Virus record (IMG/VR): IMGVR_UViG_3300048995_000008
Location: 31,653 to 95,652 of that record
Length of the DNA: 64,000 nucleotides
Reading direction: 5' to 3' (one strand)
Source of the DNA: a virus
Lineage: Duplodnaviria; Caudoviricetes
In this document: positions 211 to 29,811 of the stretch, piece by piece
Layout of the letters: each line of letters begins with the position of its first letter
Position numbering within the stretch: position 1 is the first letter of the stretch
Notes under the pieces: generated by a model
Told to the model about the DNA's origin: nothing
Seen by the model: the letters and a program-made list of their open reading frames with translations, nothing else
The model's database searches: none
Translations under genes and position numbers: made by a program

Positions 211-432
211 TTGCTGCGTGATCACCAGTGCGGACGGATGGCCGGAGATCAGCATCCCGACAACTGGTCTGCGATCGTCGATGCAGAGAATGACCTTGTT
301 TGTCTCGTCCCGCCGCATGTCTCGCAATACGCACCGCCAGCGACTGAGCAGGATCAGCAGCTAGAGTCGAGAGTCAGAGCGCAGATTATCTGTGACATGC
401 TCAACGCCGTGCAGAATAGAGAACTACGATGA
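211..432 (+). CDS. hypothetical protein
   Basis: ORF whose stop overlaps the next start (ATGA at 429-432); start uncertain. Confidence 0.4.
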   Translation: MLRDHQCGRMAGDQHPDNWSAIVDAENDLVCLVPPHVSQYAPPATEQDQQLESRVRAQIICDMLNAVQNRELR

Positions 433-1319
433 TATCAGTGATCGGTGACATCATGCTTGACGAATATATCGAAGGTGTCGTAACGAGAATCAGCCCTGAG
501 GCTCCAGTGCCGATCTTCCTAGAAATCTCACGACGATTCAGCCTTGGTGGCGCAGCCAACGTCGCTTGTGGCGTCGCCGCGATGACGAACAACGTGCGTG
601 GATTCGGTGTCGTAGGTGTAGACACTGATGCTGAGTCAGTGAGAACCCTACTACACAGAGCAACACCTAATCTCACTGCTCTGACAGAGCATGGTCGTAG
701 AACGACTAAGAAGTCACGATACGTTGTCGGTGGACATCAACTGATGCGTGTGGATGCTGAAGACACGAGTGATGTTAGTTCAACAGTGACCAGAAGGATC
801 TTAGAGACTGTCTCTGCTCAAGAGCCAAGTGTTATCATTCTATCAGACTACGCTAAGGGAGTACTGACGCAGGAACTATGTCACAGCGTGATCAAGGATC
901 GTCGCAATAGAGTAATCGTAGATCCAAAGAGACCAGACTGGACGAGATACGCAGGTGCATACTTGATCACACCAAATACTGAGGAACTGCTGCTCGCCAA
1001 GCAGTTTGAGTCTCTTGCTTGTAAGGAGAGTGAGGTAGTTAGATCACTGATGACACGTCATCAGATTGCTAACTGCCTCGTGACTCTTGGTAGTCTTGGC
1101 ATGAAACTCTACGCAGAAGACGGATCAGTCACGCACATGCCAGCTGTTTCGCGCGACGTGGTTGATGTGACCGGCGCTGGAGATACTGTTGTCGCTGTCG
1201 TGGCAGCGCGGACAGCAGCTGGAGACGATCTGAGGAAAGCTGTTAAGGTCGCCTGCGTTGCTGCCGGCATAGCGGTGACCAAGCGTGGTGTCTACACAGT
1301 GAGGAAGGAAGAGCTGTGA
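429..1319 (+). CDS. rfaE1: HldE/RfaE domain I-like D-glycero-beta-D-manno-heptose-7-phosphate kinase (PfkB family), stand-alone kinase domain
   Basis: Signature VIGDIMLDEY..G.V.RISPEAPVP, GGAANVA, SDYAKGVL, VDPK, TPN..E and PfkB motif DVTGAGDTV. Confidence 0.93.
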   Translation: MISVIGDIMLDEYIEGVVTRISPEAPVPIFLEISRRFSLGGAANVACGVAAMTNNVRGFGVVGVDTDAESVRTLLHRATPNLTALTEHGRRTTKKSRYVVGGHQLMRVDAEDTSDVSSTVTRRILETVSAQEPSVIILSDYAKGVLTQELCHSVIKDRRNRVIVDPKRPDWTRYAGAYLITPNTEELLLAKQFESLACKESEVVRSLMTRHQIANCLVTLGSLGMKLYAEDGSVTHMPAVSRDVVDVTGAGDTVVAVVAARTAAGDDLRKAVKVACVAAGIAVTKRGVYTVRKEEL

Positions 1320-2320
1320 ACAAGATATTCTCATTCGTCAAGGTCACGGATAGCTCTATAGTGGCTAGTGCTAGAATAGCCAGATTCGTGAGCGATCTGA
1401 TTGAGACGCCACTGTGCTGGGACGCTGCGATCGGTGATGATCCACTAGACGTACTAGTCATAGTCGGTGGTGCATACGCATTCGCAGGTGATGACGTACT
1501 GAGCTCACTCGGCGAAGCGATTCGACAGACGAGGCGACTTGTCTGGATCCAGAATGACTACACAGTCGTGCCACCGAAGGATCAGTCTGGCGCTGAGTCT
1601 CCATTTCGCAGAGCATTCAGAGATCGAGCATCGTCTGGTGCTGCACCGACAGATTTCTGGTCTACGGTCAAGACTATGACCAGACCCGGACTAGTGGTCG
1701 ACAAGACGAAGACAGGCTGGCGCGTCGGTGAAGACTCAAGATACGTGAACTGGAACGCACTGACGTTCGACACAGCGGATAGACGATTCGTCACAGCAGA
1801 CGTTGACACTGACAAGGAGTCACTGTTCTACTATGGTTCATATCGTGATGGACCTGGCAAGAAGTGCCGAGTCAAGTACTTTGATCAGTACTTCGTGGCT
1901 CCAATGACACGAACAGTAGTCAGCAGTCCTTCGTCCAAGTTCGCCGAGAGATACAGTGACGTGACGTGCGTGCCTAAGCTGACTGGTAGTCTGAGCCACG
2001 CGCTGTGTCGATACGGTCTTGGACTCTACGTAGAAGATCCAAGGTCTCACGAAGAGTTTCACTCACCTGCAAACCGATTCTATGAGATGCTCAGTGCAGG
2101 ACTGCCGATGATCTTTCAGCCAGAATCAAAGCGCATGCTAGCAGAGGCAGGCTATGACGTCTCAGAGTTTACAGCATGGCGCAGCGAGGTACCTGGGATG
2201 ATGGCGATCAATGCGACAATCGCCGCTAGACAGCGAGAAATGTGGTGGGAGACTGCCCTTGCCGAGAAGAAATCACTGGAGCGACTAGTTCAGTCAGCTT
2301 GGGTGAAGGTGACTGGGTGA
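1316..2320 (+). CDS. GT-B glycosyltransferase, T4 DNA beta-glucosyltransferase-like
   Basis: LFYYGSYRDG resembles BGT VIYGGSFRSG; C-terminal D..SHEEFHSPANRFYEMLSAGLPMIF resembles the BGT/GT-B nucleotide-sugar-binding R-x-x-E helix. Confidence 0.7.
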   Translation: MNKIFSFVKVTDSSIVASARIARFVSDLIETPLCWDAAIGDDPLDVLVIVGGAYAFAGDDVLSSLGEAIRQTRRLVWIQNDYTVVPPKDQSGAESPFRRAFRDRASSGAAPTDFWSTVKTMTRPGLVVDKTKTGWRVGEDSRYVNWNALTFDTADRRFVTADVDTDKESLFYYGSYRDGPGKKCRVKYFDQYFVAPMTRTVVSSPSSKFAERYSDVTCVPKLTGSLSHALCRYGLGLYVEDPRSHEEFHSPANRFYEMLSAGLPMIFQPESKRMLAEAGYDVSEFTAWRSEVPGMMAINATIAARQREMWWETALAEKKSLERLVQSAWVKVTG

Positions 2321-3438
2321 AGATACTGATTCCTACTCGGGCGAGGCCTGATCGACAGATCACAGCAGACGCGTTATGCGAAGCTGGCATCCCATACACA
2401 CTTGTTCGCACCATCGGGGATGAGACTGTCTATCCTTCTCACCACGATCAGGTCTGGGCGCCAGTGAGTGGCATCATGGACAAGCGGAACTGGATCATGG
2501 ATCAGACACTCGTGGGACAGTGGGCTGGCGGATTTTGTGCTGACGGCAAGCGCATCGATCCAGGTAATCAGAAGATTCTGGTCATAGACGACGACGTCAG
2601 ATTCTATCGTGTCGACGAGCTCACACTTGATACGCCCGGACGCGAGGTACAAGGATATCGCTTTCTACCGAGCTGTCGGCATGACTTGCGCGAGATGGTT
2701 AGCCTGATCTCTATGCGTCTTGACGACTACGCACATGTCGGTGTAGTGCGGCGCTACGGCGCGCACCAGATGACACAGCCATTCACGCTCAATGCGAAAT
2801 GTCTGCATGTGCTCGGCTACAATCTCGCAAGATTTCCTAAGCCTTTTCCGCGGTACAGACTGACTACTGGCAGTGACGTTGACTATCAGCTGCAGCTGAC
2901 GTCACTCGCCGGCAGCTGCTTCCTGACGACAGAGTTCTGTCACGAGGAGGCACCGATGCATCGCGCTGGCGGTTGTGCCCTGTGGCGAACGCCGCAGTTG
3001 ATCGCAGAAGGAATGTCAAGACTGCAGGCGCTGTGGCCTGACTATGTGTTCCTCAGGACAGACAGTGACGGCACAACAGCCTGCCGTGTTGCGTTGAAGA
3101 AACTTGCGCTGGACCATGGTCACCCGGGTGTTCCGGCTCAGATCGAGGAGGCACACCGGGCTCACGTCGCTGCGCTCGAGGCGAAGAGACGCAGTCTGAT
3201 GACTGAAGAGCAGCAGACAGAGTCTGATCGCCGACAGGCTGACGCGAGCACAGCGTCGCGCGAGCGACTGAGAGCGCGGATGGACGCGATGACTCCGTCA
3301 GAGCGCAAGGAGTTCCGCAGACAGCGACGCGAAGTAGCTGAGTTGCGGAAGAAAGCGCGCACTGAACAAATGAAGGCTGAGCTGCGTCTGCAGCTGATGA
3401 GTGAGACGACACAAACACCGATAGGAGAAGACCCATGA
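2317..3438 (+). CDS. GT-A glycosyltransferase, TAGT/JGT/GREB1-like, with charged coiled-coil C-terminal tail
   Basis: GTG start overlaps upstream stop; ILIPTRAR, KRNWI, DxD motif VIDDDV, SDVDY..Q, GGC motif. Confidence 0.75.
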   Translation: MKILIPTRARPDRQITADALCEAGIPYTLVRTIGDETVYPSHHDQVWAPVSGIMDKRNWIMDQTLVGQWAGGFCADGKRIDPGNQKILVIDDDVRFYRVDELTLDTPGREVQGYRFLPSCRHDLREMVSLISMRLDDYAHVGVVRRYGAHQMTQPFTLNAKCLHVLGYNLARFPKPFPRYRLTTGSDVDYQLQLTSLAGSCFLTTEFCHEEAPMHRAGGCALWRTPQLIAEGMSRLQALWPDYVFLRTDSDGTTACRVALKKLALDHGHPGVPAQIEEAHRAHVAALEAKRRSLMTEEQQTESDRRQADASTASRERLRARMDAMTPSERKEFRRQRREVAELRKKARTEQMKAELRLQLMSETTQTPIGEDP

Positions 3439-3590
3439 CGACAGAGCAAGACACTGATAATACAGACGAGACAAGCAGCAGCACTGACCAGGAGCCAGCT
3501 GTTCCAGAGGACGGTGATGACGAGGATGAGGAGGAGGATGAAGATGAGGAGGACGAGGAAGATGATGAGGAAGATGATGACGACGAGTAG
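3435..3590 (+). CDS. 51-aa highly acidic micro-protein (possible DNA mimic)
   Basis: Not in ORF track; AGGAG RBS at 3423, ATGA overlap, translates MTTEQDTDNTDETSSSTDQEPAVPEDGDDEDEEEDEDEEDEEDDEEDDDDE*. Confidence 0.75.
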   Translation: MTTEQDTDNTDETSSSTDQEPAVPEDGDDEDEEEDEDEEDEEDDEEDDDDE

Positions 3591-3596
3591 CTGACC

Positions 3597-4193
3597 ATGT
3601 CTCGGCGGATTCTCATACTCGGTCCTCACGGGGCTGGCAAGTCAACACTCGTGCGGCAAGTCATGTCGCTGCACGAGCGTCGAACTGTCGTTCCTGGCGG
3701 TGTCGGTGAGCTGCCGCTCGGCTACGAGCTGCGTCGCGATTACGATCAGCCTGCAGCGCAGCTGGTCGTGATCGGCAACTATGAGGAGACGCTTCGGGAT
3801 CACTACGGCATGCATCAGTTCGAGCGCTATCGGTCGAATTTCATCGCAGCGTTAGAGTACGCTACGACTGCCGAGTGCTCTGTACTGATGGAGGGTGGTC
3901 TCACACGGCGGCGAAGACTAGAGACTGAGGAAGGGAAGCGGTTCTGTGATGGGCTGCTTACGATATGGCTGTGTCCGGCCAACGCTGCGAGATGCATGCG
4001 CGTCGGACTGACTGACGAGCAGTATCATCGTAGTCATGCAGCGTCGATCGCTGTGGCGAAAACAGTTGAGGATAATGGCGCTGAGGTGCATCGCACCTGT
4101 CATCGCGAGGATGCACTGAAGTGGGTGTGCGACGTCGTCGACGATCGCCTGGACTACAGGCGAGCAGCAGTCTTTCAGACTGACTATAGGTGA
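3597..4193 (+). CDS. P-loop nucleotide kinase (5-hmdU DNA kinase / dNMP kinase-like)
   Basis: Walker A GPHGAGKST, PLGY..VIGNYE, Walker B-like VLMEG; near the TS homolog. Confidence 0.7.
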   Translation: MSRRILILGPHGAGKSTLVRQVMSLHERRTVVPGGVGELPLGYELRRDYDQPAAQLVVIGNYEETLRDHYGMHQFERYRSNFIAALEYATTAECSVLMEGGLTRRRRLETEEGKRFCDGLLTIWLCPANAARCMRVGLTDEQYHRSHAASIAVAKTVEDNGAEVHRTCHREDALKWVCDVVDDRLDYRRAAVFQTDYR

Positions 4194-4219
4194 AACAGCT
4201 GCTGTTAGACGTTCGTGCA

Positions 4220-4249
4220 TTGCTAACTACGCGGTAACCGTAGTATCCT
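4220..4249 (+). promoter_or_regulatory. putative sigma70-type promoter with internal inverted repeat
   Basis: TTGCTA-N18-TATCCT; CTACG..CGTAG inverted repeat in the spacer; followed by AGGAGG RBS. Confidence 0.4.
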
Positions 4250-4267
4250 GGCACAGGAGGCTTAGGC

Positions 4268-4420
4268 ATGTCTATTCAGGTCCTCACGCACCTCGGCCAT
4301 GCCGTGGCCACGCGCTTCGCGATGTGCGAGTCACTCGGAAGGCCGGTGTATATTCACTTGGTGCTGGACGTGTCGTGGTCTAGGGACGTGAAGAGATACG
4401 TGTACAGGACAAGAGGTTGA
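4268..4420 (+). CDS. 50-aa hypothetical protein
   Basis: AGGAGG RBS then ATG; below ORF-track cutoff. Confidence 0.5.
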   Translation: MSIQVLTHLGHAVATRFAMCESLGRPVYIHLVLDVSWSRDVKRYVYRTRG

Positions 4421-4421
4421 C

Positions 4422-4745
4422 ATGATGCTGTTGACACTGCTGAGCTTCGTTAGACACGATGACAGCTGTGACCGACTCGAGTGCGACTGTGGTCTATATG
4501 TTCTCATAGATGCGCTTACCGTCGCTGAACTGACGACGCTGGAGACCGTAAACTCAAACATCGTAGAGTCATACAGGCGCCAGAAGAAGATGACTGACCT
4601 ACACGGTCTCGCACTAGAGTGGTTCAAGGGACATGACCGTCCGTGCGAACAGAATGGCGAGTGGAGACATACTGACGAGCATAGTGAGCTAGACCGTAGG
4701 CTGCGCGAGGCAGTCGGTGCATCACCAACAGTGACCAATCGATGA
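4422..4745 (+). CDS. hypothetical protein
   Basis: ORF coupled to the TS gene by ATGA overlap. Confidence 0.55.
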   Translation: MMLLTLLSFVRHDDSCDRLECDCGLYVLIDALTVAELTTLETVNSNIVESYRRQKKMTDLHGLALEWFKGHDRPCEQNGEWRHTDEHSELDRRLREAVGASPTVTNR

Positions 4746-5881
4746 GAGTTATTCGTGCTCGCAATGTTCACGAGGCTCTGCCTCGAGCGATGCAGATTCT
4801 TGCAGATGACGGCGTCACGCAGCCGTCGCGCAACGGCGACGTAGTGCGACTGACGGAGCCGGTCTCAACTGTCTACACACGACCGTGTGAACGTGTCGAG
4901 TTTCACCCGTGGCGCGACTCGAATCCTTTTCTGCACTTCTACGAGTCACTGTGGATGCTCGCAGGTCGTCGCGACGTGGCGCCACTGGCGCGCTACGCAA
5001 AGCAGATGGAGCAGTACAGCGACGACGGGGAGACGCTGAACGCTGCTTACGGGTACAGGTGGCGTCACGCCAGCCCAGTCTCGTCGCAGGGTCGGCACGA
5101 CGGCACTGACCAGCTTCCTGTCATCTGCGACGCTCTCCGTGCTGACCCGATCTCTCGTCAGCAGGTACTGCAGATCTGGGATCATCGCGAGGATCTAGGC
5201 ACGCAGACCAGGGACCACGCTTGCAACCTGACCGCGACGTTTCAGGTACAGAATGGGCGACTCGATATGGTCGTGTTCTGTCGCAGCAACGACGCCATCT
5301 GGGGCTGCTATGGTGCGAACGCCGTACATTTCTCCATGCTGCAGGAGTACGTCGCGCGACGAGCAGGATTCGACGTCGGTACGTATACGCAGATCAGCGT
5401 GAACTGGCACGCGTACACTGATGTGTACGACAAGATGCAGGGAAAGAGACTACGCTGTGACGACATAGTCAGAATTATCAGATCTTCAACTGGAGCCAAA
5501 GTCATCGACAGCGTCAGTCCGTACGACAGTCTTCTGATGAGCGTCGCGCCGTATCCTATCGCCGCAGACAGCACAGATTTCGCCCGGTGGGACGCTCTGT
5601 GTAAAGCGTTCGTGTCTGCAGACGGTCAGTTGCCTCAGATGTGCAGGCGCCAGGACTTCATATATCCGTTCTTCCGCGATGTCGCCTGGCCGATCGTTGC
5701 GGCACATGATCTCTACAAGGATGGTGTCTATACCTCGCCGCGAGGTGACAAGAAGACACCGTGGGACGACATCTATGCGACACTAGACGAGTGCCAGGCG
5801 AGCGACTGGCGACTGGCGTGCAGGATGTGGATGATGCGAAGACAGGCTAGGCACGTGTTGAAGACTGACGCCAATGGCTAA
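4742..5881 (+). CDS. thymidylate synthase-family dUMP hydroxymethylase (5-hmdUMP synthesis)
   Basis: SRNG, YGYRWR, SRQ.V.QIWD, catalytic DHACN, RSNDAIWGCYGANAVHF with Asn at the base-specificity position, NWHAY; matches the phage hmdU-type clade rather than ThyA (RSCD..LG.PFN). Confidence 0.85.
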   Translation: MRVIRARNVHEALPRAMQILADDGVTQPSRNGDVVRLTEPVSTVYTRPCERVEFHPWRDSNPFLHFYESLWMLAGRRDVAPLARYAKQMEQYSDDGETLNAAYGYRWRHASPVSSQGRHDGTDQLPVICDALRADPISRQQVLQIWDHREDLGTQTRDHACNLTATFQVQNGRLDMVVFCRSNDAIWGCYGANAVHFSMLQEYVARRAGFDVGTYTQISVNWHAYTDVYDKMQGKRLRCDDIVRIIRSSTGAKVIDSVSPYDSLLMSVAPYPIAADSTDFARWDALCKAFVSADGQLPQMCRRQDFIYPFFRDVAWPIVAAHDLYKDGVYTSPRGDKKTPWDDIYATLDECQASDWRLACRMWMMRRQARHVLKTDANG

Positions 5882-5970
5882 TAGGACTGCTGCCGGCCTG
5901 AGCCTTGGTCCGCAGATTGGCACGGATGGCTTAGTGAGAGATCTATTTCGCTGCCTTAGAGGACACGAAG

Positions 5971-6037
5971 AGCTGGTGCAGTTGAGTACAGCTGGTGCAG
6001 TTGAGTACAGCTGGTACAGCTGGTGCAGCTGAGTATA
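5971..6037. repeat. degenerate 19-bp tandem repeat (AGCTGGTGCAGTTGAGTAC)
   Basis: Two exact copies plus one truncated and one variant copy in the TS-HD intergenic gap. Confidence 0.8.
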
Positions 6038-6053
6038 GCAAGGAGACAGTCTG

Positions 6054-6587
6054 ATGCAGACTAGCGACACCTTCCTTCATGCCCTATCTCTCCGTGCTTC
6101 CGGCTACGTCAAGCGCTGGCACACCATCCACACGATGCGCGAGCAGAGTGTTGCGTCACATTCTGGACAGGCTGTCTCGCTGCTGCTGTGTCTTCATCCG
6201 TCGCCGTCTCTGAACCTGATCAAGGCAGTACTCTGGCACGACTGTAGCGAGCGAGTCGTTGGCGACGCACCGTCACCCGGGTTGCGTGCGTTTCCGGAGT
6301 ATCGGAGGATGTACGAACAGCTAGAGATGGTCGTGGCGCTGCGGGATCACCCGTCGATGTACGACGCCATCGTCGCTCTCAATGATGACGAGCGACAGTG
6401 GCTTCGAGCAATAGACGTGCTCGAAGCATTCCTCTTCTCACAAGAGGAGGTAAAGCTCGGCAACAGTCAGTTCAGTGTAGTGACTGGCCGATTGTACGAC
6501 GCGCTCAACATGGAGGGAACGCCAGCGCCGGTGATTGCGTTTCGCGACTGGTACCTACCTGAGGGAAGAGACAGGAGCTTCGCGTGA
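6054..6587 (+). CDS. HD-domain 5'-deoxynucleotidase (YfbR/DatZ-like)
   Basis: VKRWH..QSVASHS, HD.SE..GD.PSP, D.LEA. Confidence 0.85.
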   Translation: MQTSDTFLHALSLRASGYVKRWHTIHTMREQSVASHSGQAVSLLLCLHPSPSLNLIKAVLWHDCSERVVGDAPSPGLRAFPEYRRMYEQLEMVVALRDHPSMYDAIVALNDDERQWLRAIDVLEAFLFSQEEVKLGNSQFSVVTGRLYDALNMEGTPAPVIAFRDWYLPEGRDRSFA

Positions 6588-7381
6588 TTACGACTGTAGA
6601 CTACTCTAAGACGCCGCACGTTTTCAGGGCTAGTGGCATCCCTGACACTTGTAGTCTGTGTGGAAAATCGTATGAATCTTATGCTGTGCATCTAAAATTA
6701 CCTGATGTGATGAACAGCGATGCGCAGCTCACTGCTGACCTCAATGAGGCGAGGGGGAGCTTGCGTGCGGCTAACTTGGAGATTAGACAACTCAAGGCTG
6801 ACATTCACCTCAGAGAGAAGGAGCATCAACGGACACTGATGTCCGAGTCGACCGATGTTCGTTACAGACATCACATCCAATTCGTCTCTGGAGACGATGT
6901 TGCTCATCTTCTGAAGAAGGACGAGGAGTACGGTGCTTCGTGGAAGCGTCGTGGCGGCGTCGGGGCCTACATGATGATGATCCGCAAGATCGATCGAATC
7001 GTGGCACTGATCCCAGAGCCTGATGGCCATCCGACTCACGGCTTCGACGTGTTCGCGATGCTGGCGGACGAGAGCGTAGGTGGGAGCGAGCAGCTGCTGG
7101 ACACGATGAGAGATCTGAGAGGGTACCTGACGCTGATAGAGGCGGAGCATAGAGTGCGCACGGGAGATCTCTCGAAGCAGCCAGTCACGTACGAAGAGGT
7201 GATGAGCACACCACCAGACCTCGTGTGTCCTGGCTTCAGCTGTGGCCGCATACCCGTACTACAGACTGCAGAGACTACGAGCTGCAGTGCAAGAGAAGCC
7301 AAGGCCAATAGTCAGCCAACAAGATCCGAGACCGCGACACATGGTGCCGAGCCGTCTGAAGACGACGACATACCATTCTGA
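6584..7381 (+). CDS. Nmad1/DUF1599-like (MazG-like all-alpha NTP pyrophosphatase) protein with N-terminal CxxC/coiled coil and DDDIPF tail
   Basis: KKDEEYGASW..RG..G......RKIDRI...DT.RDL.GY; ends EDDDIPF. Confidence 0.7.
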   Translation: MITTVDYSKTPHVFRASGIPDTCSLCGKSYESYAVHLKLPDVMNSDAQLTADLNEARGSLRAANLEIRQLKADIHLREKEHQRTLMSESTDVRYRHHIQFVSGDDVAHLLKKDEEYGASWKRRGGVGAYMMMIRKIDRIVALIPEPDGHPTHGFDVFAMLADESVGGSEQLLDTMRDLRGYLTLIEAEHRVRTGDLSKQPVTYEEVMSTPPDLVCPGFSCGRIPVLQTAETTSCSAREAKANSQPTRSETATHGAEPSEDDDIPF

Positions 7382-7484: not shown

Positions 7485-9557
7485 GTGACCAAATACAAGC
7501 CTTCACACTCCCTCTCCTTCGAGATGCCCGAAATGCGTCAGGAGGTCTACTATAGACCTCACTCGTCACTGCTCCCGCACGTCGACTGGACGCCGCCGAC
7601 CGCTGCCGAGATGCCGAGCTGGAAGGACGCGAAGCGTGTCTGCATCGACCTCGAGTGTCGCGATCCGCAGCTGCGCGTACTCGGACCAGGGTGTCGTCGG
7701 CGCGGCAACTATGTCGTGGGAGTGGGCTTCGCCATCGAGGATGGGCCTGAGTTCTACCTGCCGATGCGCCACGAGAGCGGCGACAACTGCGACTGGGACG
7801 TGTGGTCCTACGTGCAGGAGCAGATCAGAAACTTCAATGGCGTGATCGTCGGCAACGGGATGCAGTACGACCTAGACTGGCTCTGCCAGCCGAATGGCGA
7901 GGGATCACCGACTACAGACGCTGACCACCCTGTGTTGAAGAAGCGACACATGGACGTCCAGAATGCGGACGTCATGATCAATGAGCTGTATGACCGCTAC
8001 AACCTGGAGATTATGTGCGAGCGACACGGCCTGCCAGGAAAGGACGAGCGACATCTACGCGATGTGGCTGCGATCTATCGTGCAGACCCCAAGGTCGACA
8101 TGTGGCGCTTTCGTGGTCGCGACGTGGCCCGCTACTGCACGGTAGACGCGCGTAGGCCGCTTCAGCTGCTGAGACGACAGGAGGAGCTGATAGAGTCAGA
8201 GAAGGTGCAGTCCATCTGGGCGCTCGAGTGCAAGGTGACAAGGCTGTGCGTCAAGATGAGGCGACGTGGCGTGCGCGTCGACCTGGACAAGCTGGAGCAG
8301 GTGGAGCACAGAGCACGTGAAGTAAAGAGCGAGATGCTCCACAAGGTGTCGCACGCGACTGGTGTCAGGATCGGGATGGAGGACATCTGGAAATCTGTTG
8401 TGCTGGCTCAGGCACTGAAGGTCGCAGGCTACAGTGTGCCGAAGACTGACGTCAAGGTCAGCAAGAAGACAGGCAAGGAGACCGGTGGCGACAAAGACTC
8501 TGTCGACAAGTTCTTCTTGGCGAAGTGTGGAGAGATCGGGTCCTGGCTGCTGCGAGCACGTGGATGGGATCAGATCGAGAACAAGTTCGCTGCACAGGTG
8601 CGCAAGTACGGCGTTGATCACGGCATCGGACCAGACGGAAAGACACACTTCCGAGCGCACTGCACGTTCAACCAACTGCGTACGAGCGGAGGTGGAGAGG
8701 ACGGCAGTGAAGGTGAGGACGGCCGTGGCGTGCGCTATGGTCGGTTCAGCAGCACTGACTTCAACATGCAGGGTCAACCAGTTCGCGATGACGAGTATGG
8801 CGAGCTGTGGCGCAGCGTGTACGTGCCTGACTATAGCAGCGAGGGATGGTGCTGCAGCGACTGGTCGCAGCAGGAGCCACGCATCGGCGTGCACTACGCA
8901 GAGCTGCTGAATCTTCCAGGCGCCAAGGAGTTCGCTGATGCATACAGAGCGAATCCGCGGCTCGACATTCACCAGAAGCTAGCTGACCTCAGCGGTATCG
9001 TTCGCAAGATCGTTAAGAACTACGTCAACGGTCGCCTGTACGGTATGGGTGACCCTAAGCTCTGTCGCAGCATCAGCAAGCCTCTGGTGTGGAAGACTGT
9101 TAGGGGTGAGGAGCGCGAGGTACCAGGACCAGAGGGTCAAGCTATCATCGATCAGTTCGACAAGTTCGCACCGTGGGTGCGTGGTCTCGTCAGGGAGGCT
9201 GCACGTCAGGCTGATAAAGTCGGTCACGTGTGGACGATCCTGCGCCGGAAGTGTCGCTTTGTGAAGCTTGGTGAGGGTAGAAGCGGGCGAGGACGATACG
9301 ACAAGACGCACAAGGCGTACTCCAGGGTGGGTCAGGGTGGAGCGGCCGATCAGGCGAAGGCTACCGCCGTCAAGGCTGACGAGGATGGCATTCCACTGCA
9401 GATGGTCGTGCATGACGAGTTTGACTGGTCGTACTTTAGCTTAGAGGAGGTTAAGCACATGAAGGAGCTGCAGCTGACCACCGTGCAGTTCAATGTACCG
9501 ATGCTGGTCGACAGCGAGGTCGGCCGGTCGTGGGGTGAACTGGAGAAGATAGAGTGA
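7485..9557 (+). CDS. polA: family A DNA polymerase with 3'-5' exonuclease domain
   Basis: Exo I IDLE, Exo II N..YDL, Exo III YC..D; GRFSS..N.Q.QP, motif A DWSQQEPR, motif B K....G.LYGMG, motif C VHDE. Confidence 0.95.
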   Translation: MTKYKPSHSLSFEMPEMRQEVYYRPHSSLLPHVDWTPPTAAEMPSWKDAKRVCIDLECRDPQLRVLGPGCRRRGNYVVGVGFAIEDGPEFYLPMRHESGDNCDWDVWSYVQEQIRNFNGVIVGNGMQYDLDWLCQPNGEGSPTTDADHPVLKKRHMDVQNADVMINELYDRYNLEIMCERHGLPGKDERHLRDVAAIYRADPKVDMWRFRGRDVARYCTVDARRPLQLLRRQEELIESEKVQSIWALECKVTRLCVKMRRRGVRVDLDKLEQVEHRAREVKSEMLHKVSHATGVRIGMEDIWKSVVLAQALKVAGYSVPKTDVKVSKKTGKETGGDKDSVDKFFLAKCGEIGSWLLRARGWDQIENKFAAQVRKYGVDHGIGPDGKTHFRAHCTFNQLRTSGGGEDGSEGEDGRGVRYGRFSSTDFNMQGQPVRDDEYGELWRSVYVPDYSSEGWCCSDWSQQEPRIGVHYAELLNLPGAKEFADAYRANPRLDIHQKLADLSGIVRKIVKNYVNGRLYGMGDPKLCRSISKPLVWKTVRGEEREVPGPEGQAIIDQFDKFAPWVRGLVREAARQADKVGHVWTILRRKCRFVKLGEGRSGRGRYDKTHKAYSRVGQGGAADQAKATAVKADEDGIPLQMVVHDEFDWSYFSLEEVKHMKELQLTTVQFNVPMLVDSEVGRSWGELEKIE

Positions 9558-11359: not shown

Positions 11360-11607
11360 CCAAGACGATCCTCGACCGCTACCTGTCGCTCGATACTGAC
11401 TACGGTACTCAGGCTCATCAGGCTGCGTTCTCACGACGCATGCTTCGCCTGCAAGAGCTCGAGCCATGCTCGCGTGACCACACCGACGACTGTGTCGAGA
11501 TACGTCAGGAGGACGGCTCTAAGAAGGTGATAGTCTGGTCGACGCATACGTCCAAGTGTTACTCACAAGAGACAGTCGAGCGTGTGCGAAGAGAGGAGCT
11601 GTCGTGA
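11356..11607 (+). CDS. hypothetical protein
   Basis: GTGA overlaps on both sides. Confidence 0.5.
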   Translation: MTKTILDRYLSLDTDYGTQAHQAAFSRRMLRLQELEPCSRDHTDDCVEIRQEDGSKKVIVWSTHTSKCYSQETVERVRREELS

Positions 11608-12233
11608 CGCTCACACAGGGATGGATTAGTCACTTCTACGAGATCGCACTGCTGGTATCGACGCGCAGCAAGGATCCGTCCACCCGGGTTGGCGCGCTGG
11701 TGGTGGACGACGCACGAAGGATCGTCGGCAGCGGCTACAACGGGTTTCCTCGCGGCGTAGATGACGATCCTGCGCGCTACGCAGATCGTCCGGTCAAGCT
11801 TGCCATGGTCGTTCACGCCGAGGTGAACGCGATCCTCAACGCGGCGAAGTCAGTGCGTGGCTGTGTGCTCGTGTCTATGCGCGGTCCGTGCAGCGCGTGC
11901 AGCGGTGTGATCATACAGAGTGGCATCGACCGAGTCGTGTGTCCTGATCTGCCAGCGAACAGCAAGTGGCAGGACGACTGGATGCTCTCTCAGCAGATGC
12001 TGAGAGAGGCAGGCGTGCCAGTAGATCATGCACCACTGCCGAGACACGGCAGGACGCAAGAGGAGTACTACGTAGACGGACTGCGCGTGGTGAGCAACTA
12101 CCTGCGCCCGTCGCATCGCGCGGACTGCGACAGTGTCGGTGTGGGACCATGCAGGAATGGATGCGACATGGAGCCGATGACTGACATGGCTGAAGAGACG
12201 ATCTCCAGACTGTTACGAGGTAAATCGCTATGA
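11604..12233 (+). CDS. dCMP deaminase
   Basis: SKDPST.VGA, GYNGFPRG, HAE.NAI, PC..C zinc motifs. Confidence 0.93.
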   Translation: MTLTQGWISHFYEIALLVSTRSKDPSTRVGALVVDDARRIVGSGYNGFPRGVDDDPARYADRPVKLAMVVHAEVNAILNAAKSVRGCVLVSMRGPCSACSGVIIQSGIDRVVCPDLPANSKWQDDWMLSQQMLREAGVPVDHAPLPRHGRTQEEYYVDGLRVVSNYLRPSHRADCDSVGVGPCRNGCDMEPMTDMAEETISRLLRGKSL

Positions 12234-12616: not shown

Positions 12617-13460
12617 TGCCTCCTGGATGCCCGGTGTCCGCGTGTTCGATTCCTGCTGATGGCACACAACGTAATAAACCCTAAGGGACACTCAAATGCA
12701 AGTCAAGATCCACCACCGCTGGAATACTGAACCCTGCGCCGTCGAGATCGTTCCGGACAATTGCGACAATCCCATGCGCGCCGCGATCATCCAGGCCGTG
12801 GCGCGCGGCGCCGACCTCATCGGCGCCGACCTCACCCGCGCCAACCTCACTGGCGCCAACCTTACCAACGCCAACCTTACCAACGCCGACCTCACTGGCG
12901 CCGACCTCACTGGCGCCAACCTCGCCGGCGCCAGCCTCACTGACGCCAATTTCACCGACGCCAGTTTCACCAGCGCTAACCTCACCCGCGCCGACCTCGC
13001 CGTCGCCAACCTCACCCGCGCCGACTTCACTGGCGCCAACCTCACTGGCGCCAACCTCGCCGGCGCCAGCCTCACCGACGCCCGCCAGGACTTCCGTTTG
13101 GTGTTGGATGCTGCGCCAAACGAAGTCTCTGGGCTCCTGCTCGCACTACGCGAGGGTCGCATCGATGGCACACAGTATGAGGGCGAGTGTGCATGCCTCA
13201 AGGGCACCATCGCCAACATCCGGCACTGCGATTACCGCGATCTGGGCGATGCCGACGCGCTCAGACCAGACAGCAAACGGCCATCGGAGCGCTTGTTCAT
13301 GGGCATTTCGCCAGGACATCTTCCGAGCATCAACCACGTCGCGAAGATCGTGGAGGGCTGGATCCTGGAGTGGCAGGCCGAGCGGGCATCCGCGTAGGTC
13401 AGTCACCCTGAACGTCTGTGGACATATGCGATATAACAGAAAGGAACACTAATGTCTCCT
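12578..13460. repeat. 47-bp imperfect direct repeats (12578-12624 and 13414-13460) flanking the pentapeptide gene
   Basis: 38/47 identical, ungapped, by manual alignment. Confidence 0.8.
12696..13397 (+). CDS. pentapeptide repeat protein with C-terminal Cys-containing domain
   Basis: About 18 A(D/N/S)(L/F)xx repeats, then [17 protein letters not shown]. Confidence 0.9.
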
Positions 13461-14021: not shown

Positions 14022-14446
14022 GCGAGGAGTCCAAGGTCCGCAGCGACATCGTCGCCATCCTCAAACCTCTACTGGCCTTTCCGGTAGAGAACACAGCGGC
14101 AGTTGGCTGTCCGGACGTGTGCTGTCTGCTCGGATGGGTAGAGGTCAAGCTCGCAGAGAGGCCAGTGCGACACGATACTCGTGTAGACGTAGCTGTGCGG
14201 CCTGCGCAGCGTCTCTGGATGCGCGCCTGGAGCAAGCATGGTGGACACTGCTGGTGGCTCACCAGACTGCGCGGTGGGACTGACCTGGCAGACCTGTGGA
14301 CGCTGCACATCGGTGGCGTCGGCGCTGATCATCTCGGTCACTGGACCGAGAGACAGATGATTCAGCATGCGCTGTGGCACGAGCAGCGGCTGAACAGCGT
14401 ACCGCCTGACTTCGTGAAGGTACTGCTCGCTGCGGTCAGTCGATGA
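14015..14446 (+). CDS. PD-(D/E)xK nuclease (VRR-NUC/Holliday junction resolvase-like)
   Basis: E..GCPD..WVEVK..RPAQ..W...GG. Confidence 0.8.
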   Translation: MVSEESKVRSDIVAILKPLLAFPVENTAAVGCPDVCCLLGWVEVKLAERPVRHDTRVDVAVRPAQRLWMRAWSKHGGHCWWLTRLRGGTDLADLWTLHIGGVGADHLGHWTERQMIQHALWHEQRLNSVPPDFVKVLLAAVSR

Positions 14447-14694
14447 GTGATGATCTCTATGATAAGCTGACAGACAGTGCCGTCTGGTTTCGTCTAAAGG
14501 AGATGCTGTCACATGCTATCATGAGCCTGCCAGAATCAGAGGAGAAGCAGCGATACCTTAGCTTCATGAATCATGAGTGGCCTGGTCACGCGCCGAGATC
14601 GCGCGAGATAGCTACACTGGTCAGCAGGACGACGCTGCTGCAGCGAGAGAAGGACAAGCTAGTGCTGCTGCTGACCGTTCCGGTGAAGAAGTGA
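14443..14694 (+). CDS. hypothetical protein
   Basis: Coupled ORF. Confidence 0.5.
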   Translation: MSDDLYDKLTDSAVWFRLKEMLSHAIMSLPESEEKQRYLSFMNHEWPGHAPRSREIATLVSRTTLLQREKDKLVLLLTVPVKK

Positions 14695-14767
14695 CTAACG
14701 CGGCAGACCTAGACAGGAGACTGCATGTGATCGAGTACGTAGCGAACTGGTTCAGAAGGAGACATCG

Positions 14768-15256
14768 ATGATCAAGTACTTTCTAGACAAGCCTCACTGC
14801 CCCAGCCTGGATCTTCGTCTCGAGCGTCAATCCGCTGGCGCGTCTGGCTACGATCTGATGGCCAACTTGTCCGTAGCGCGTGAGATGCAGCCTGGCGAGC
14901 GATGGTTCGTGTCGACTGGCCTGTACCTCGAGATGCCATCTGGTGTCGAGGGACAGATCCGAAGTCGCAGTGGGCTCGCCAAGAATCATGGTGTGATTGT
15001 GCTGAACGCGCCAGGTACGATCGACAGCGACTTTCGTGGCGAGGTCTGCGTGACCTTGCTGAACACTGACAGATCGCAGCCACACACGATTCACCCGGGT
15101 AACAGAGTGGCGCAGCTGGTCTTCGCGCCGGTGGTGGGTGCCGACGTCTACCAGCTGGCAGTGCAGCGCAGCTGGGAGCCTGTGCGGGTCGGCAGTCGTG
15201 GAGAGCTGTCTCTCACAGCTCGAGGTGCCAGTGGCCACGGAAGCACAGGACAGTGA
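14768..15256 (+). CDS. dut: trimeric dUTPase
   Basis: Motifs SGYDL, RSGLA, GTIDSDFRGE, RVAQL, RGASGHGSTG. Confidence 0.96.
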   Translation: MIKYFLDKPHCPSLDLRLERQSAGASGYDLMANLSVAREMQPGERWFVSTGLYLEMPSGVEGQIRSRSGLAKNHGVIVLNAPGTIDSDFRGEVCVTLLNTDRSQPHTIHPGNRVAQLVFAPVVGADVYQLAVQRSWEPVRVGSRGELSLTARGASGHGSTGQ

Positions 15257-16078: not shown

Positions 16079-16231
16079 TTGTGGCGCTGCGGTGCTGGTG
16101 TACTATAGGCTGTAATGGATGAAAAGCTGCAACGGTGCCTCGACGAGCTTCGGCGTCTCCGAGAGGGATTTGCCGAGGGTTTGTATACTGAGGAGGAGGC
16201 GGCCGCGACTGCCATCGACACGGTGTATAAT
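16079..16231 (+). promoter_or_regulatory. cluster of -10-like elements (TACTAT 16101, TATACT 16184, TATAAT 16226)
   Basis: Three TG-preceded -10 hexamers in an intergenic gap before a new operon. Confidence 0.5.
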
Positions 16232-16272
16232 ACCTTACGTGAGTCTGCACTCGGACGAGGAAGGGGATAGTC

Positions 16273-16626
16273 ATGGGACAGTGGCGACTAACCACGCGCG
16301 AGGATGGACCGGCGCGCGTGATGCTGATGCTAGCGTACGGCAGTCGCACGCTAGGTGTGGTGAATATGTCGCGTGGGGAGTATGACTCCCTATGTCGCTT
16401 CGTGATGAGTAACTTCGTCGCGATGGTTGGCCAGGAGCTGTTCGACAAGGTGCAACAGAAGCTCTGGCAGGACGCGCAGCGCGCGTGTCGCGAAGATGCG
16501 GAGCTTGCGAAGCAGCGGTTGATCGACTTCGGCTGGTCCTTCGATGGAATCAAGAGCTTCGCGCATCAGATGACGCTGCATTTAGCGGAGAGGTTGTTAG
16601 GCGAGCTGCCGGAGTACCTGAGGTAA
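16273..16626 (+). CDS. hypothetical protein
   Basis: Purine-rich RBS, ATG. Confidence 0.6.
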   Translation: MGQWRLTTREDGPARVMLMLAYGSRTLGVVNMSRGEYDSLCRFVMSNFVAMVGQELFDKVQQKLWQDAQRACREDAELAKQRLIDFGWSFDGIKSFAHQMTLHLAERLLGELPEYLR

Positions 16627-16639
16627 TACGGAGGCTACT

Positions 16640-16858
16640 GTGACTAGAGAACAGGTCAAGAAGATCGAGCAGATCAACTCTGCTGCGCGCGAGGCTATTT
16701 GCTGCGCGATCGGCGCGCAAGCTGGTAGTGTATCTGCAGAGCGCTCTAGACAAAGTCTAGATGAGTTCAGAAGACTTGTCTCTGCTGACCCTGTACTGTG
16801 GCTGGATCTCACACGAGAGTGGAGCAGCGTCTCTAGTGCGTTCACAGGTGGTGAGTGA
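16640..16858 (+). CDS. hypothetical protein
   Basis: GGAGG RBS. Confidence 0.6.
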   Translation: MTREQVKKIEQINSAAREAICCAIGAQAGSVSAERSRQSLDEFRRLVSADPVLWLDLTREWSSVSSAFTGGE

Positions 16859-17157
16859 CAGCCGTCACGGTCACGCTGCAGAAGTTGTTTGAAGACTTCG
16901 CAGCCCTGACGATGGTAGGCTGGCAGGAGATGTCGCGCGAGGAGATCGAGGCTGACTATGGCATCAGGTTTGAAGAGGTCAGTCCAACTGCACGTGATTT
17001 CGCGCTTGCTGCCGTCACAGACAACGTGACTGCTGTTCGCTACGCGTGGACGCTCGCCAACTCTGTCGAGCTACTTGACGTGCATCTGTTCGTGTTTGAC
17101 GGAGAGAACTGTGCGATAGAGCGACACTATCGGGTGCGCGCGACGGAAACAATCTAG
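16855..17157 (+). CDS. hypothetical protein
   Basis: GTGA-coupled ORF. Confidence 0.55.
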   Translation: MTAVTVTLQKLFEDFAALTMVGWQEMSREEIEADYGIRFEEVSPTARDFALAAVTDNVTAVRYAWTLANSVELLDVHLFVFDGENCAIERHYRVRATETI

Positions 17158-27667: not shown

Positions 27668-29262
27668 GCGATCCAGAAGGTAGCCGGACCGAGCACACAG
27701 CCGTTCGGCATGTTGGTGTATCTCACCGACAGCTGTTCACACGCTGCGAATCCAGACGAAGCGTTGAACTTCGCTCTAGGCCCGCGTAGACCGTTCGACC
27801 ACACTGGTACCCCAACGGAGTGTGACGGACTGTCCCGAATCGCAGGCCCTACGTCTGGGCTGTGGAGACGCTCGAACGTAAAGGACGTTATAATCTCCTC
27901 GACACTGTTCGTGGCGTTTGCAGACGCGTTGACACCGACTAGATTCGCGGCGAGAAAGCTGCTCAGCGTCGGAGACTGTAGAGAACCAAATGTGCCGAAC
28001 GACGCGTCCAGGTTGCCGGGGTCGCGAGTCGAGCGCCATATGGAGTATCCAAGGAGTCTACCGTGACGACACGGGCACGGCACGTACAGCGTATTTGTTC
28101 CGCTCGTGGCTGTGACACTGTTTCCACTATTGGTGGTCGACCATCCTGCGACCTGCCTGTACGCCGTCGGGTCGACAGTGAATGAGCGCACTCCGAGCGG
28201 AATGCGAAGATCGTGCACTGAGACATTATTGAGTGCAACTGCGTCCTTGCCGAAGATTGGTGCGTTACCTCCTGTCGTCCAGCCATTACCAACGACGGCG
28301 TAGCCTACCACACACCCACTCTCACCGCTGACTGTCGGATCGGGGATCTGTGGACTGGCCGCAGGTGTTCCGACGACTACAGATGGCGCGCACTGTACGC
28401 GCAGTCGCTTGCTCAGCGTAGAGCTGACTGTCAGTGCGTTGACACCGCCAGTGAGATGAGTTGCTGCGAATGTGTCTGCAGGGTCAGTCAGCACGCTGGC
28501 AGGCGTGCCTGCCGACTGAATCTCGATCAACGTAGAATTCGCCGTAATCGCTGTCTCAATATTGAGCACAGTCGAGACGCCCGTTTGATAGAGAATAGTG
28601 ATCGTGTTTCCGCTCTCTGAGTACGTGACGCCGGTGCCGGTAGTTCGCTTCTGCAGTGCCATCGTGATCTGGTCACCACCAAGTCCGCTGACGATAGCTC
28701 TGACGATCGTGTTGACATGAGCCGTGAGTGTCACAAGATTGAGTGACGCCTTGACGGGCACGGTCTGCGTGACGCGCGACGTGGGAGCCGCAGAGACTGT
28801 AGTCAGTGAGATCTGTAGCAGATCGACACGCGGGTTCGTCGCATCGCCATTCGTGAGAGTCCACATGTCTTGATTGCTGACACCTCCGACCGGAAGTGCA
28901 GCCCCGTCGTCGATGAAGAATGGAGTCAGGTTAGGAAGATCGCCAGCAGGAGGGAGACTACCAACCTGACCAAGTGGCTGAAAGATTGGCCCGAATCCTA
29001 GCGCGATTTTGCTGTTCGTGGATCCTTGCTGAAGCGCAGCTACACCCGGGTGCAGACACCTGGCGAACTGGACGTCAAAACCGTGGTCAATACCCCAGAA
29101 GTCAATGTTGACGCTGCCACGAAACTGCGGTGCAAGCGTGTCCAGCGCTTGACTGAGTAGGGCGAACCTAGCGTACTGCTGCAAGGTGTTCAAGTCTGCG
29201 TGAGTGAGCTCCTCACCGTCATTGAACTGTAGTCCTGCTGGAAAGATCAGGTCAGAGCTCAT
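27655..29262 (-). CDS. tail fibre/baseplate-distal structural protein
   Basis: F.DGE.L...DLN.LQ N-terminus and NPRVDLL motif typical of fibre/baseplate attachment; follows wedge genes. Confidence 0.65.
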   Translation of the reverse strand: MSSDLIFPAGLQFNDGEELTHADLNTLQQYARFALLSQALDTLAPQFRGSVNIDFWGIDHGFDVQFARCLHPGVAALQQGSTNSKIALGFGPIFQPLGQVGSLPPAGDLPNLTPFFIDDGAALPVGGVSNQDMWTLTNGDATNPRVDLLQISLTTVSAAPTSRVTQTVPVKASLNLVTLTAHVNTIVRAIVSGLGGDQITMALQKRTTGTGVTYSESGNTITILYQTGVSTVLNIETAITANSTLIEIQSAGTPASVLTDPADTFAATHLTGGVNALTVSSTLSKRLRVQCAPSVVVGTPAASPQIPDPTVSGESGCVVGYAVVGNGWTTGGNAPIFGKDAVALNNVSVHDLRIPLGVRSFTVDPTAYRQVAGWSTTNSGNSVTATSGTNTLYVPCPCRHGRLLGYSIWRSTRDPGNLDASFGTFGSLQSPTLSSFLAANLVGVNASANATNSVEEIITSFTFERLHSPDVGPAIRDSPSHSVGVPVWSNGLRGPRAKFNASSGFAACEQLSVRYTNMPNGCVLGPATFWIACGL

Positions 29263-29750
29263 GAGTACTCCTGGACTAGAAAACTCTTAGCTGCAGCTCG
29301 CTTGGCGCGAACAGCGTCAGTGACAGCCACCAGGCAGTCAGCGCTCGCTGGAATGCGAACGATGATCATCGTGTCACCGACGTGGCTGTCTCTGTCTAGA
29401 TAACATCGCCTGTCCAGGTACAACGCGTCACGAGGTAGTTCAAGCATGAAGACCTGCCCACCGCCATTCGTATCGACGATCTGCTGCACAGCCTGCAGAA
29501 TCAGGTCTGGTGTCAGAGCAAGTGGGGGCGTCTGTACGCGAGCTCTGAGTGCGTCGTCTGTCTCACCATCTTGTCGAAAGAGACCCACTGACCTGGCCGC
29601 CAGCTCTAGATAGGCGTCGTCAGCGAATGAGACGACACCCATTCTAGACCAGTTGCGAAGCGTACCGTCAGCAATCGCCATCATTTCGGCGAGCACATAC
29701 GCGTCGTCAGTGTTGTCAGGTCGATCTGGTCGCCCCATGTCTTGAGGCAC
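29259..29750 (-). CDS. baseplate wedge protein (P2 gpI/Mu gp48-like)
   Basis: L.L.A...GL.R..GETD..LR.R motif; follows baseplate J; frame open to 29819. Confidence 0.7.
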   Translation of the reverse strand: MPQDMGRPDRPDNTDDAYVLAEMMAIADGTLRNWSRMGVVSFADDAYLELAARSVGLFRQDGETDDALRARVQTPPLALTPDLILQAVQQIVDTNGGGQVFMLELPRDALYLDRRCYLDRDSHVGDTMIIVRIPASADCLVAVTDAVRAKRAAAKSFLVQEYS

Positions 29751-29811
29751 GACTGACCTGTAGAGACCGACTAGTCCTTCGACGACGTCAGCCTCAAGCG
29801 GTATCGTGAAG

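Follow-up and report, generated by a model that had tools for sequence, protein, structure and literature searches.

Does a phage that carries the genes for 5-hydroxymethyluracil (5hmU) also decorate this base with a sugar in its DNA, and could that sugar be a heptose? The question is raised by a gene cluster at positions 429 to 7,381 of the 64,000-nucleotide stretch of DNA analysed here (the window), which spans bases 31,653-95,652 of the 95,652-bp IMG/VR record IMGVR_UViG_3300048995_000008 (Duplodnaviria; Caudoviricetes) and in which an HldA/HldE-type sugar kinase, two glycosyltransferases (GTs) of different folds and a thymidylate synthase (TS) homologue lie close together. The record, rated 100% complete by CheckV, belongs to a lytic soil phage that is uncultured and has been seen in one soil metagenome sample, probably its source; the analysis covered the whole record, including the 31.6 kb that precede the window. 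We found that replacement of thymine by 5hmU, with sugars attached to it, is the most likely function of the cluster. A sugar on 5hmU in the DNA is probable as a gene-based prediction, and the complete explanation, in which a 5hmU module and two DNA glycosyltransferases are joined by kinase-fed heptose, is a tentative one that we doubt a little more than we favor. All genes listed in an earlier reading of this DNA made from its letters only (the sequence-only reading) were present on the plus strand at or near the positions it had given, and a megablast search with the region returned no match among 50,697 phage records.

The evidence for 5hmU comes from a set of nucleotide and replication genes arranged as in the Yuavirus phages. 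The TS-fold enzyme (4742-5881; phrog_5131, 4.6e-111), a predicted dUMP hydroxymethylase, is 45-47% identical to the Yuavirus/M6-like deoxyuridylate hydroxymethyltransferase, and the motif RSND...YGANAVHFS is common to both. The sequence-only reading had placed an Asn at the specificity site of this enzyme; an Asn does occur in YGANAVHFS, but it lies one residue off the column of T4 Asp179 and E. coli Asn177. After the TS gene come an HD-domain 5'-deoxynucleotidase-like phosphohydrolase (6054-6587; YfbR-like PF12917, 2e-12; phrog_6047, 6.5e-39), in the position of the Yuavirus phosphohydrolase, and the family A DNA polymerase PolA (7485-9557; PF00476, 1.7e-23; phrog_17, 1.7e-61). The previously listed dCMP deaminase (11556-12233; PF00383, 5.5e-21) and dUTPase (14768-15256; PF00692, 1.7e-19), like PolA, were confirmed by Pfam matches. 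The order of genes equals that of Yuavirus, namely parts of the 5-hydroxymethyldeoxyuridine (5hmdU) DNA kinase (5-HMUDK), TS, HD hydrolase, PolA and dCMP deaminase, and phages of the M6 group make 5hmdU-derived bases (PMC5889632, PMC8989533). Together, these likenesses indicate that the phage DNA very probably contains 5hmU.

The first of the two glycosyltransferases (GT-B; 334 aa, 1316-2320) has no match in Pfam, PHROG or NCBIfam. Its AlphaFold (AF2) model, with a mean predicted local distance difference test score (pLDDT) of 94.3, has the two-Rossmann-domain GT-B fold, and in a search of the PDB ranks 1-6 were all T4 beta-glucosyltransferase (BGT), with template modeling (TM) scores of 0.64-0.69 and E values of 5e-8 to 1e-6, in agreement with the BGT-like label that it had been given beforehand. 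Sequence identity to T4 BGT is ~12% and the hhalign alignment of the two is weak (E 0.023, probability 2%). This same weak alignment pairs YYGSxR of GT-B with GGSFR of BGT (placing GS-R on S189/R191) and R254/E257 with R269/E272, and the GT-B residues under GGSFR and R269/E272 are invariant in the family. In BGT, S189/R191 and R269/E272 belong to motifs that contact UDP. The alignment of motifs would fit, though not prove, a nucleotide-sugar donor for GT-B. More than 360 homologues were found in metagenomes, all of them unnamed; a search of 185,579 species genomes of bacteria and archaea yielded no relative, and tblastn among the 50,697 phage records gave a sole match, in Citrobacter phage Ci1 (25%). 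Judged by these searches, the family is phage-only and has no curated model. In the 39 IMG/VR loci whose GT-B gene is flanked by at least 4 kb on each side, the helical-domain protein HMUDK_hel was found within 10 kb in 27 and the TS homologue in 25, with loci that lack this linkage being almost all from the most distant relatives (<=28% identity). Neither the amino-acid:DNA transferase ADDT nor a PfkB kinase occurred in any of the 39.

The second glycosyltransferase (GT-A; 2317-3438) scores above the gathering cut-off of the Pfam family TAGT (PF20691; 32.3 bits, cut-off 27.5) and matches phrog_842, the T-even beta-glucosyl-HMC alpha-glucosyltransferase, at 1.6e-14. An AF2 model of its first 271 residues (pLDDT 91.2) has the GT-A fold. 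The TAGT/JGT-like assignment of the sequence-only reading stands on these matches. The true start of the gene is most likely the GTG at 2317 and not 2242. The protein consists of a ~260-aa catalytic core and a ~110-aa C-terminal tail rich in Arg and Glu, and its invariant residues include R10 and D91-D92-D93 (the DDD motif). A cultured relative is PhiJL001 gp22. Relatives in 80 IMG/VR loci stand with TS in 75 and with HMUDK_hel in 71, usually as direct neighbors, and with GT-B or a PfkB kinase in none; both GT families were found together in only three other loci (L061, L070 and L074). A TET/JBP dioxygenase, the partner expected from the name of the TAGT family (TET-associated glycosyltransferase), did not appear in Pfam scans of the phage genome. 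Because both GT families nearly always lie beside this type of TS and HMUDK_hel (~100 of 119 loci), we consider glycosylation of 5hmU in DNA to be well supported, and the earlier proposal of a 5hmU replacement module combined with two DNA-type GTs is borne out by the tie of both families to TS in these loci.

HMUDK_hel accompanies both GT families more constantly than any other partner. In the present phage it is a stand-alone, aGPT-Pplase1-type protein of 323 aa (PF18723, 1.3e-26), whose gene lies outside the window, 1.6-2.6 kb upstream, at record positions 29,076-30,047 (L003:13076-14047). We rejected this open reading frame (ORF) as the 5hmdU DNA kinase itself, since it has no Walker A motif and comprises the helical domain alone. 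HMUDK_hel is probably a 5hmU-recognizing DNA module that serves the kinase in M6-type phages and a GT here, and its role may go beyond binding DNA. For the latter there is a lead: aligned with Yuavirus ADDT by hhalign, the family gives a weak local match (E 0.04) around LC-x-x-K. The family-invariant C-terminal LCE-x-x-K here weakly aligns with a Cys-containing region of that protein, and the diaminopropane-thymine paper describes an essential catalytic Cys in the ADDT/Pplase2 superfamily. ADDT itself (aGPT-Pplase2, PF18724) was detected neither in the phage's own record nor in the records of five relatives, four of them at least 93% complete, with a Yuavirus protein scoring 1.3e-46 as the control, and tblastn with Yuavirus ADDT gave no match in the loci of either GT. 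With ADDT missing, a glycosyltransferase would therefore occupy the place of the amino-acid transferase.

The proposed pathway is largely deduced from the known functions of related proteins. dUMP would come from dCMP deaminase and dUTPase, the TS-fold enzyme would convert it to 5-hydroxymethyl-dUMP (5hm-dUMP), and a P-loop kinase-like protein together with host kinases would take this nucleotide to the triphosphate. The HD hydrolase would clear competing thymidine nucleotides, with dTMP/dTTP or the dUMP pool as its predicted targets, while PolA would build 5hmU DNA. After replication, as the gene linkage in ~100 loci suggests, GT-B and GT-A would glycosylate the hydroxymethyl group of 5hmU, probably working with the stand-alone HMUDK_hel as a module that recognizes 5hmU. 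As both GTs are present here and relatives mostly have one, the sugars could be joined in a disaccharide or stand as two different monosaccharides. Heptose would enter through one phage gene only: the HldA-type kinase would phosphorylate host heptose-7-phosphate to heptose-1,7-bisphosphate, host GmhB and HldE/HldC would then yield ADP-heptose, and at least one GT would transfer the heptose.

The kinase (429-1319) had been called HldE/RfaE-type from its letters, and profile and structure searches upheld the call. It matches Pfam PfkB at 7.5e-33 and NCBIfam rfaE_dom_I (TIGR02198) at 2e-84 with 283.4 bits, the second-best family, ribokinase, reaching just 64 bits; its closest solved structure is Burkholderia HldA (PDB 4e84; 8e-44, residues 2-296). 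The motifs DVTGAGDT and DPK are present, 66 of the 68 columns that are at least 90% conserved among the 117 nearest HldE/HldA homologues are retained, and identity to many bifunctional HldE proteins is 44-46%. Judged by its sequence, the protein is a genuine member of the HldA/HldE type, with heptose-7-phosphate kinase activity as its predicted function. It groups with two further kinases, both short and stand-alone and from small metagenomic contigs (support 0.997), and the divergence within this clade is similar to that of GT-B from its nearest homologue. One member of the kinase clade (P0126) and the closest GT-B homologue (P0005) both come from 2879-bp Joint Genome Institute (JGI) contigs, a match that is suggestive only; it is just a hint because P0186 and L037 both measure 28,577 bp and yet the kinase is absent from that record. 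A metagenome scan seeded with the alignment of the three kinases recovered HldE loci of bacteria and nothing else, with identities of <=45%, and none of these contained a cluster gene. Arabinose-5-phosphate was considered as another substrate and rejected, as the arabinose-5-phosphate kinase of RB69/HY126 is APH/protein-kinase-like and not of the PfkB type.

Several findings weigh against the step from this kinase to heptose on DNA. The 283 bits are under the TIGR02198 equivalog cut-off of 345 bits. A survey of co-occurrence, which the sequence-only reading had suggested for the heptose kinase, the GTs and the TS, found the kinase in 0 of the 119 related GT-B or GT-A loci from IMG/VR, so that elsewhere both GTs work without it, presumably with common host nucleoside diphosphate (NDP) sugars; and as each GT is found in loci that lack the kinase, either of the two could be the one to use heptose. 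The remaining pathway genes, gmhA, gmhB and rfaE2, had been expected possibly upstream of the window. In the complete 95,652-bp record, however, GmhA, a GmhB-type HAD phosphatase, RfaE domain II, CTP_transf_like and NTP_transferase were all absent (TIGR00441, TIGR01656, TIGR02199, PF01467 and PF00483; no match at E<=1), and none of these turned up in Pfam scans of ~60 ORFs. For raising ADP-heptose, one additional kinase by itself would be a strange choice. Among the 50 best PDB matches listed for either GT model there is no GT9 heptosyltransferase. For this soil-metagenome phage, a host ADP-heptose pathway is an assumption. Finally, the GC content at third codon positions (GC3) of the kinase is atypically low, at 0.475 against 0.68-0.73 in TS and PolA, which is consistent with a later add-on, possibly of unrelated role. 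With GT-B at 0.540 and TS, HD hydrolase and PolA at 0.67-0.73, the low values of kinase and GT-B hint at later acquisition of that end of the operon. The heptose assignment is carried by the kinase gene alone. Of the earlier claim of a heptosylated 5hmU, the HldA-type kinase stands by its sequence, but with this single gene missing from all 119 loci and the rest of the pathway absent from the complete genome, heptose on DNA is a doubtful, if still substantial, possibility.

Much of this evidence favors the rival that survives best, in which the GTs put glucose or another host NDP-hexose on 5hmU and the kinase serves host envelope or heptose metabolism, such as the lipopolysaccharide (LPS) core or heptose-phosphate pools. 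It would account for the 0 of 119 loci, for a complete genome without any other heptose-pathway gene and for the low GC3 of the kinase, and HldE-like genes do occur outside a DNA-modification context, in Synechococcus phage S-CAM1 and in viral contigs L004-L007. Against it stands the arrangement of the genes. The stop codon of the kinase overlaps the start of GT-B within a translationally coupled block of four genes, chained by GTGA at 1316-1319, GTGA at 2317-2320 and ATGA at 3435-3438; the overlaps of kinase, GT-B and GT-A noted earlier were read directly, and the coupling also takes in a fourth gene, a 51-aa ORF rich in Asp and Glu (3435-3590). Also against it are the distinct clade of three kinases, with its GT-B-like divergence, and the fact that phage BGT-like enzymes can use heptose (bioRxiv 10.1101/2023.12.21.572611). 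On balance, we consider the hexose explanation unlikely, though the likeliest of the rivals.

A less probable rival, which we would call improbable, concerns the linkage of the sugar. Here the P-loop protein (3597-4193; 198 aa, Walker A GPHGAGKST) and HMUDK_hel, with its 1.3e-26 match, would together form a split 5hmdU DNA kinase, and the GTs would add a sugar to the 5-phosphomethyl group or displace it, yielding a phospho-sugar thymidine that resembles those of SP-15, YerA41 and Carin-5. Such a split has a parallel in Yuavirus Lydia, in which the P-loop (HMUDK_HMUD1) and helical domains are likewise separate adjoining ORFs. The P-loop protein has an ESM-Atlas feature score of 0.92 to phage clusters with HMUDK_HMUD1 or Ploopntkinase3, its homologues sit in the same slot directly upstream of TS in L008, L022, L027 and L031, and thymidines bearing phosphate plus oligosaccharide are known by mass spectrometry (PMC12686479). 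Its Pfam matches, however, are generic AAA only, PF18748 and PF18747 not being reached even at E<=5, and BLASTP against the Yuavirus kinase covers the Walker A motif alone. Furthermore, a P-loop homologue was not found in most GT-A-class loci or in PhiJL001, so the pair of GT and HMUDK_hel seems independent of a kinase, and the protein could be a plain 5hm-dUMP kinase. A complex prediction of HMUDK_hel with the P-loop protein gave a score of 0.00, which counts neither way. The P-loop protein is a candidate for either role, 5hm-dUMP kinase or catalytic half of a split 5hmdU DNA kinase.

There is also a very small chance that heptose-1,7-bisphosphate is the direct GT donor in a phosphorylase-like reaction, or that the 7-phosphate is retained, which would place an anionic heptose-phosphate on 5hmU. 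The kinase would then stand alone for want of any step of nucleotide activation, and, if true, the base would be new to DNA and so would this kind of donor use by DNA glycosyltransferases. Equally remote is a role of the GTs and kinase on non-DNA targets (host LPS, teichoic-type polymers or proteins) with bare 5hmU in the DNA, since generic GT folds and the normal service of HldA in LPS synthesis would allow it, but the GT families are phage-only or phage-dominated and lie beside a dUMP-hydroxymethylase-type TS and HMUDK_hel in ~100 loci, and their best fold and profile matches are the DNA glycosyltransferases T4 BGT, TAGT and T6 beta-glucosyl-HMC alpha-glucosyltransferase.

Glycosylated 5hmU, with heptose as its possible sugar, can be set against systems already described. 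Sugar-decorated 5-hydroxymethylcytosine (5hmC) is textbook phage biology. The sequence-only reading had stated that no heptose-modified DNA base was described, which no longer holds: phage clusters that make mono- and di-heptosyl-5hmC have been reported (Pyle et al.; bioRxiv 10.1101/2023.12.21.572611, which PMC13229309 cites as Cell Rep 2024). The 'contig 53' 5hmC cluster, like the one here, combines a phage BGT-like GT-B with one or more phage-encoded heptose-pathway enzymes, and a sugar is placed after replication on a 5-hydroxymethylpyrimidine with other steps drawn from the host metabolite pool. It differs in its base, which is 5hmC made by a methyltransferase and a TET-type dioxygenase, whereas here a TS homologue would produce 5hmU in the nucleotide pool. 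Activation differs too: in 'contig 53' it depends on a bifunctional HAD/APH-like enzyme together with a cytidylyltransferase, all of which are essential, and the present phage has only the PfkB HldA-type kinase. Beyond 'contig 53', the present phage has a second GT, of GT-A fold, and HMUDK_hel. Relative to bacterial HldA/HldE, the kinase here is stand-alone, phage-encoded, under the equivalog cut-off and without GmhA, GmhB and HldC in the genome.

The cultured Alphaproteobacteria phage PhiJL001 has a similar arrangement, with HMUDK_hel (gp19), a glucosyl transferase (gp22), Nmad5 (gp23), dUMP hydroxymethylase (gp24) and PolA (gp28). Its gp22 is of the same GT-A family as the protein here (25% identity, 3e-11), and the two phages also have in common the type of TS, the HMUDK_hel partner, the place upstream of PolA and the lack of an amino-acid:DNA transferase. 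PhiJL001 differs in having neither a GT-B nor a sugar kinase, and in having Nmad5 where the present phage has the P-loop protein. No chemical definition of its DNA product was found in the literature searched. The 5-HMUDK systems (M6/YuA, PaMx11, ViI, PhiW-14, SP10 and SH-Ab 15599; PMC5889632, PMC8989533, PMC11472151, PMC13458397) have the HMUDK helical domain in common with the present phage. Unlike them, it has no amino-acid:DNA transferase, pyridoxal phosphate (PLP) enzyme or radical S-adenosylmethionine (SAM) enzyme and no Pfam-recognizable HMUD1/HMUD2 kinase domain, and GTs fill the transferase slot.

T4 BGT (GT63; PDB 1BGT, 1C3J, 1J39) is the best structural match of GT-B, which has no Pfam BGT match. 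Like the reaction proposed here, T4 BGT and the trypanosome base J glucosyltransferase (JGT) O-glycosylate a 5-hydroxymethylpyrimidine in double-stranded DNA, and the 5hmU product would be base-J-like; the acceptor of T4 BGT, however, is 5hmC rather than the proposed 5hmU, and base J arises through JBP oxidation in contrast to nucleotide synthesis here. SP-15, YerA41 and Carin-5 resemble the present phage in a sugar-decorated thymidine base and in having several GTs and sugar-activating genes near PolA (PMC12686479, PMC5977210). They differ in a (di)hydroxypentyl linker and in belonging to another phage lineage, and GT-B has no sequence homologue there.

What is new in the present phage is the presence of both GT families in one operon together with an HldA-type kinase, the parts and the strategy of glycosylation being of known kinds. 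In the literature searched, we found no phage whose DNA has been shown chemically to bear a sugar attached directly to 5hmU, and the ~100 phage loci marked by the two GT families represent a large unmeasured class of DNA modification. The present phage is a useful entry point to this class, as it carries both GT families and a heptose-pathway kinase was seen in no other. The mass of the nucleoside would separate the sugars, with +192 predicted on 5hmdU for heptose and +162 for hexose. If the heptose prediction is true, heptosylation would extend from 5hmC to thymidine analogues, the cluster would provide new enzymes for labeling 5hmU in DNA, and the modification would bear on phage escape from restriction and other DNA-targeting defenses; the anti-restriction and anti-CRISPR purpose suggested by the sequence-only reading may reasonably be inferred.

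Variation among relatives of the GT-B locus was also observed. In 16 of the 39 loci (for example L010, L019, L027, L031, L036, L061 and L074) the immediate neighbor of the GT-B homologue is a radical-SAM/SPASM enzyme, and in L008, L039 and L041 a SAM methyltransferase takes this slot instead; the present phage has neither. Such neighbors suggest that members of the clade tailor the sugar or the base in different ways. Genes of the GIY-YIG and NUMOD3 homing-endonuclease type lie between HMUDK_hel and GT-B in two relatives (L009:9160-9774 and L027:8069-9004), and these insertions indicate mobile-element traffic in the HMUDK_hel/GT-B slot of relatives.

Other genes of the cluster and its surroundings gave further leads. 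The 265-aa protein at 6584-7381, described as Nmad1-like in the sequence-only reading, resembles DUF1599 (Nmad1) weakly in its core, a likeness that comes from an ESM-Atlas structural lead alone (TM 0.60, target side), with no Pfam match obtained. The protein is conserved beside TS and PolA in relatives, in which only its central core is conserved. Its C-terminus, EDDDIPF, is like an SSB tip, and an N-terminal CxxC...H stretch is zinc-ribbon-like. A relation to the Yuavirus gp1.7-like nucleotide kinase was considered and rejected, there being no similarity. Directly upstream of TS is a 107-aa ORF (4422-4745) with a stop that overlaps the TS start. Upstream of the window, a GATase_6-like gene under the Pfam cut-off (record 14,344-14,817) and an Amidoligase_2 gene (record 16,107-16,934) form a pair that is frequent in phages and has no obvious tie to the DNA-modification block. 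In the 51-aa ORF at the end of the coupled block, the C-terminal half is strongly acidic, with Asp or Glu at 29 of the final 30 residues, and this ORF and the Arg/Glu-rich tail of GT-A could be an electrostatic partner pair or a DNA mimic. Pentapeptide-repeat proteins can mimic DNA, and one such protein (Pfam 9e-31) is encoded at 12696-13397 of the window, amid the replication genes.

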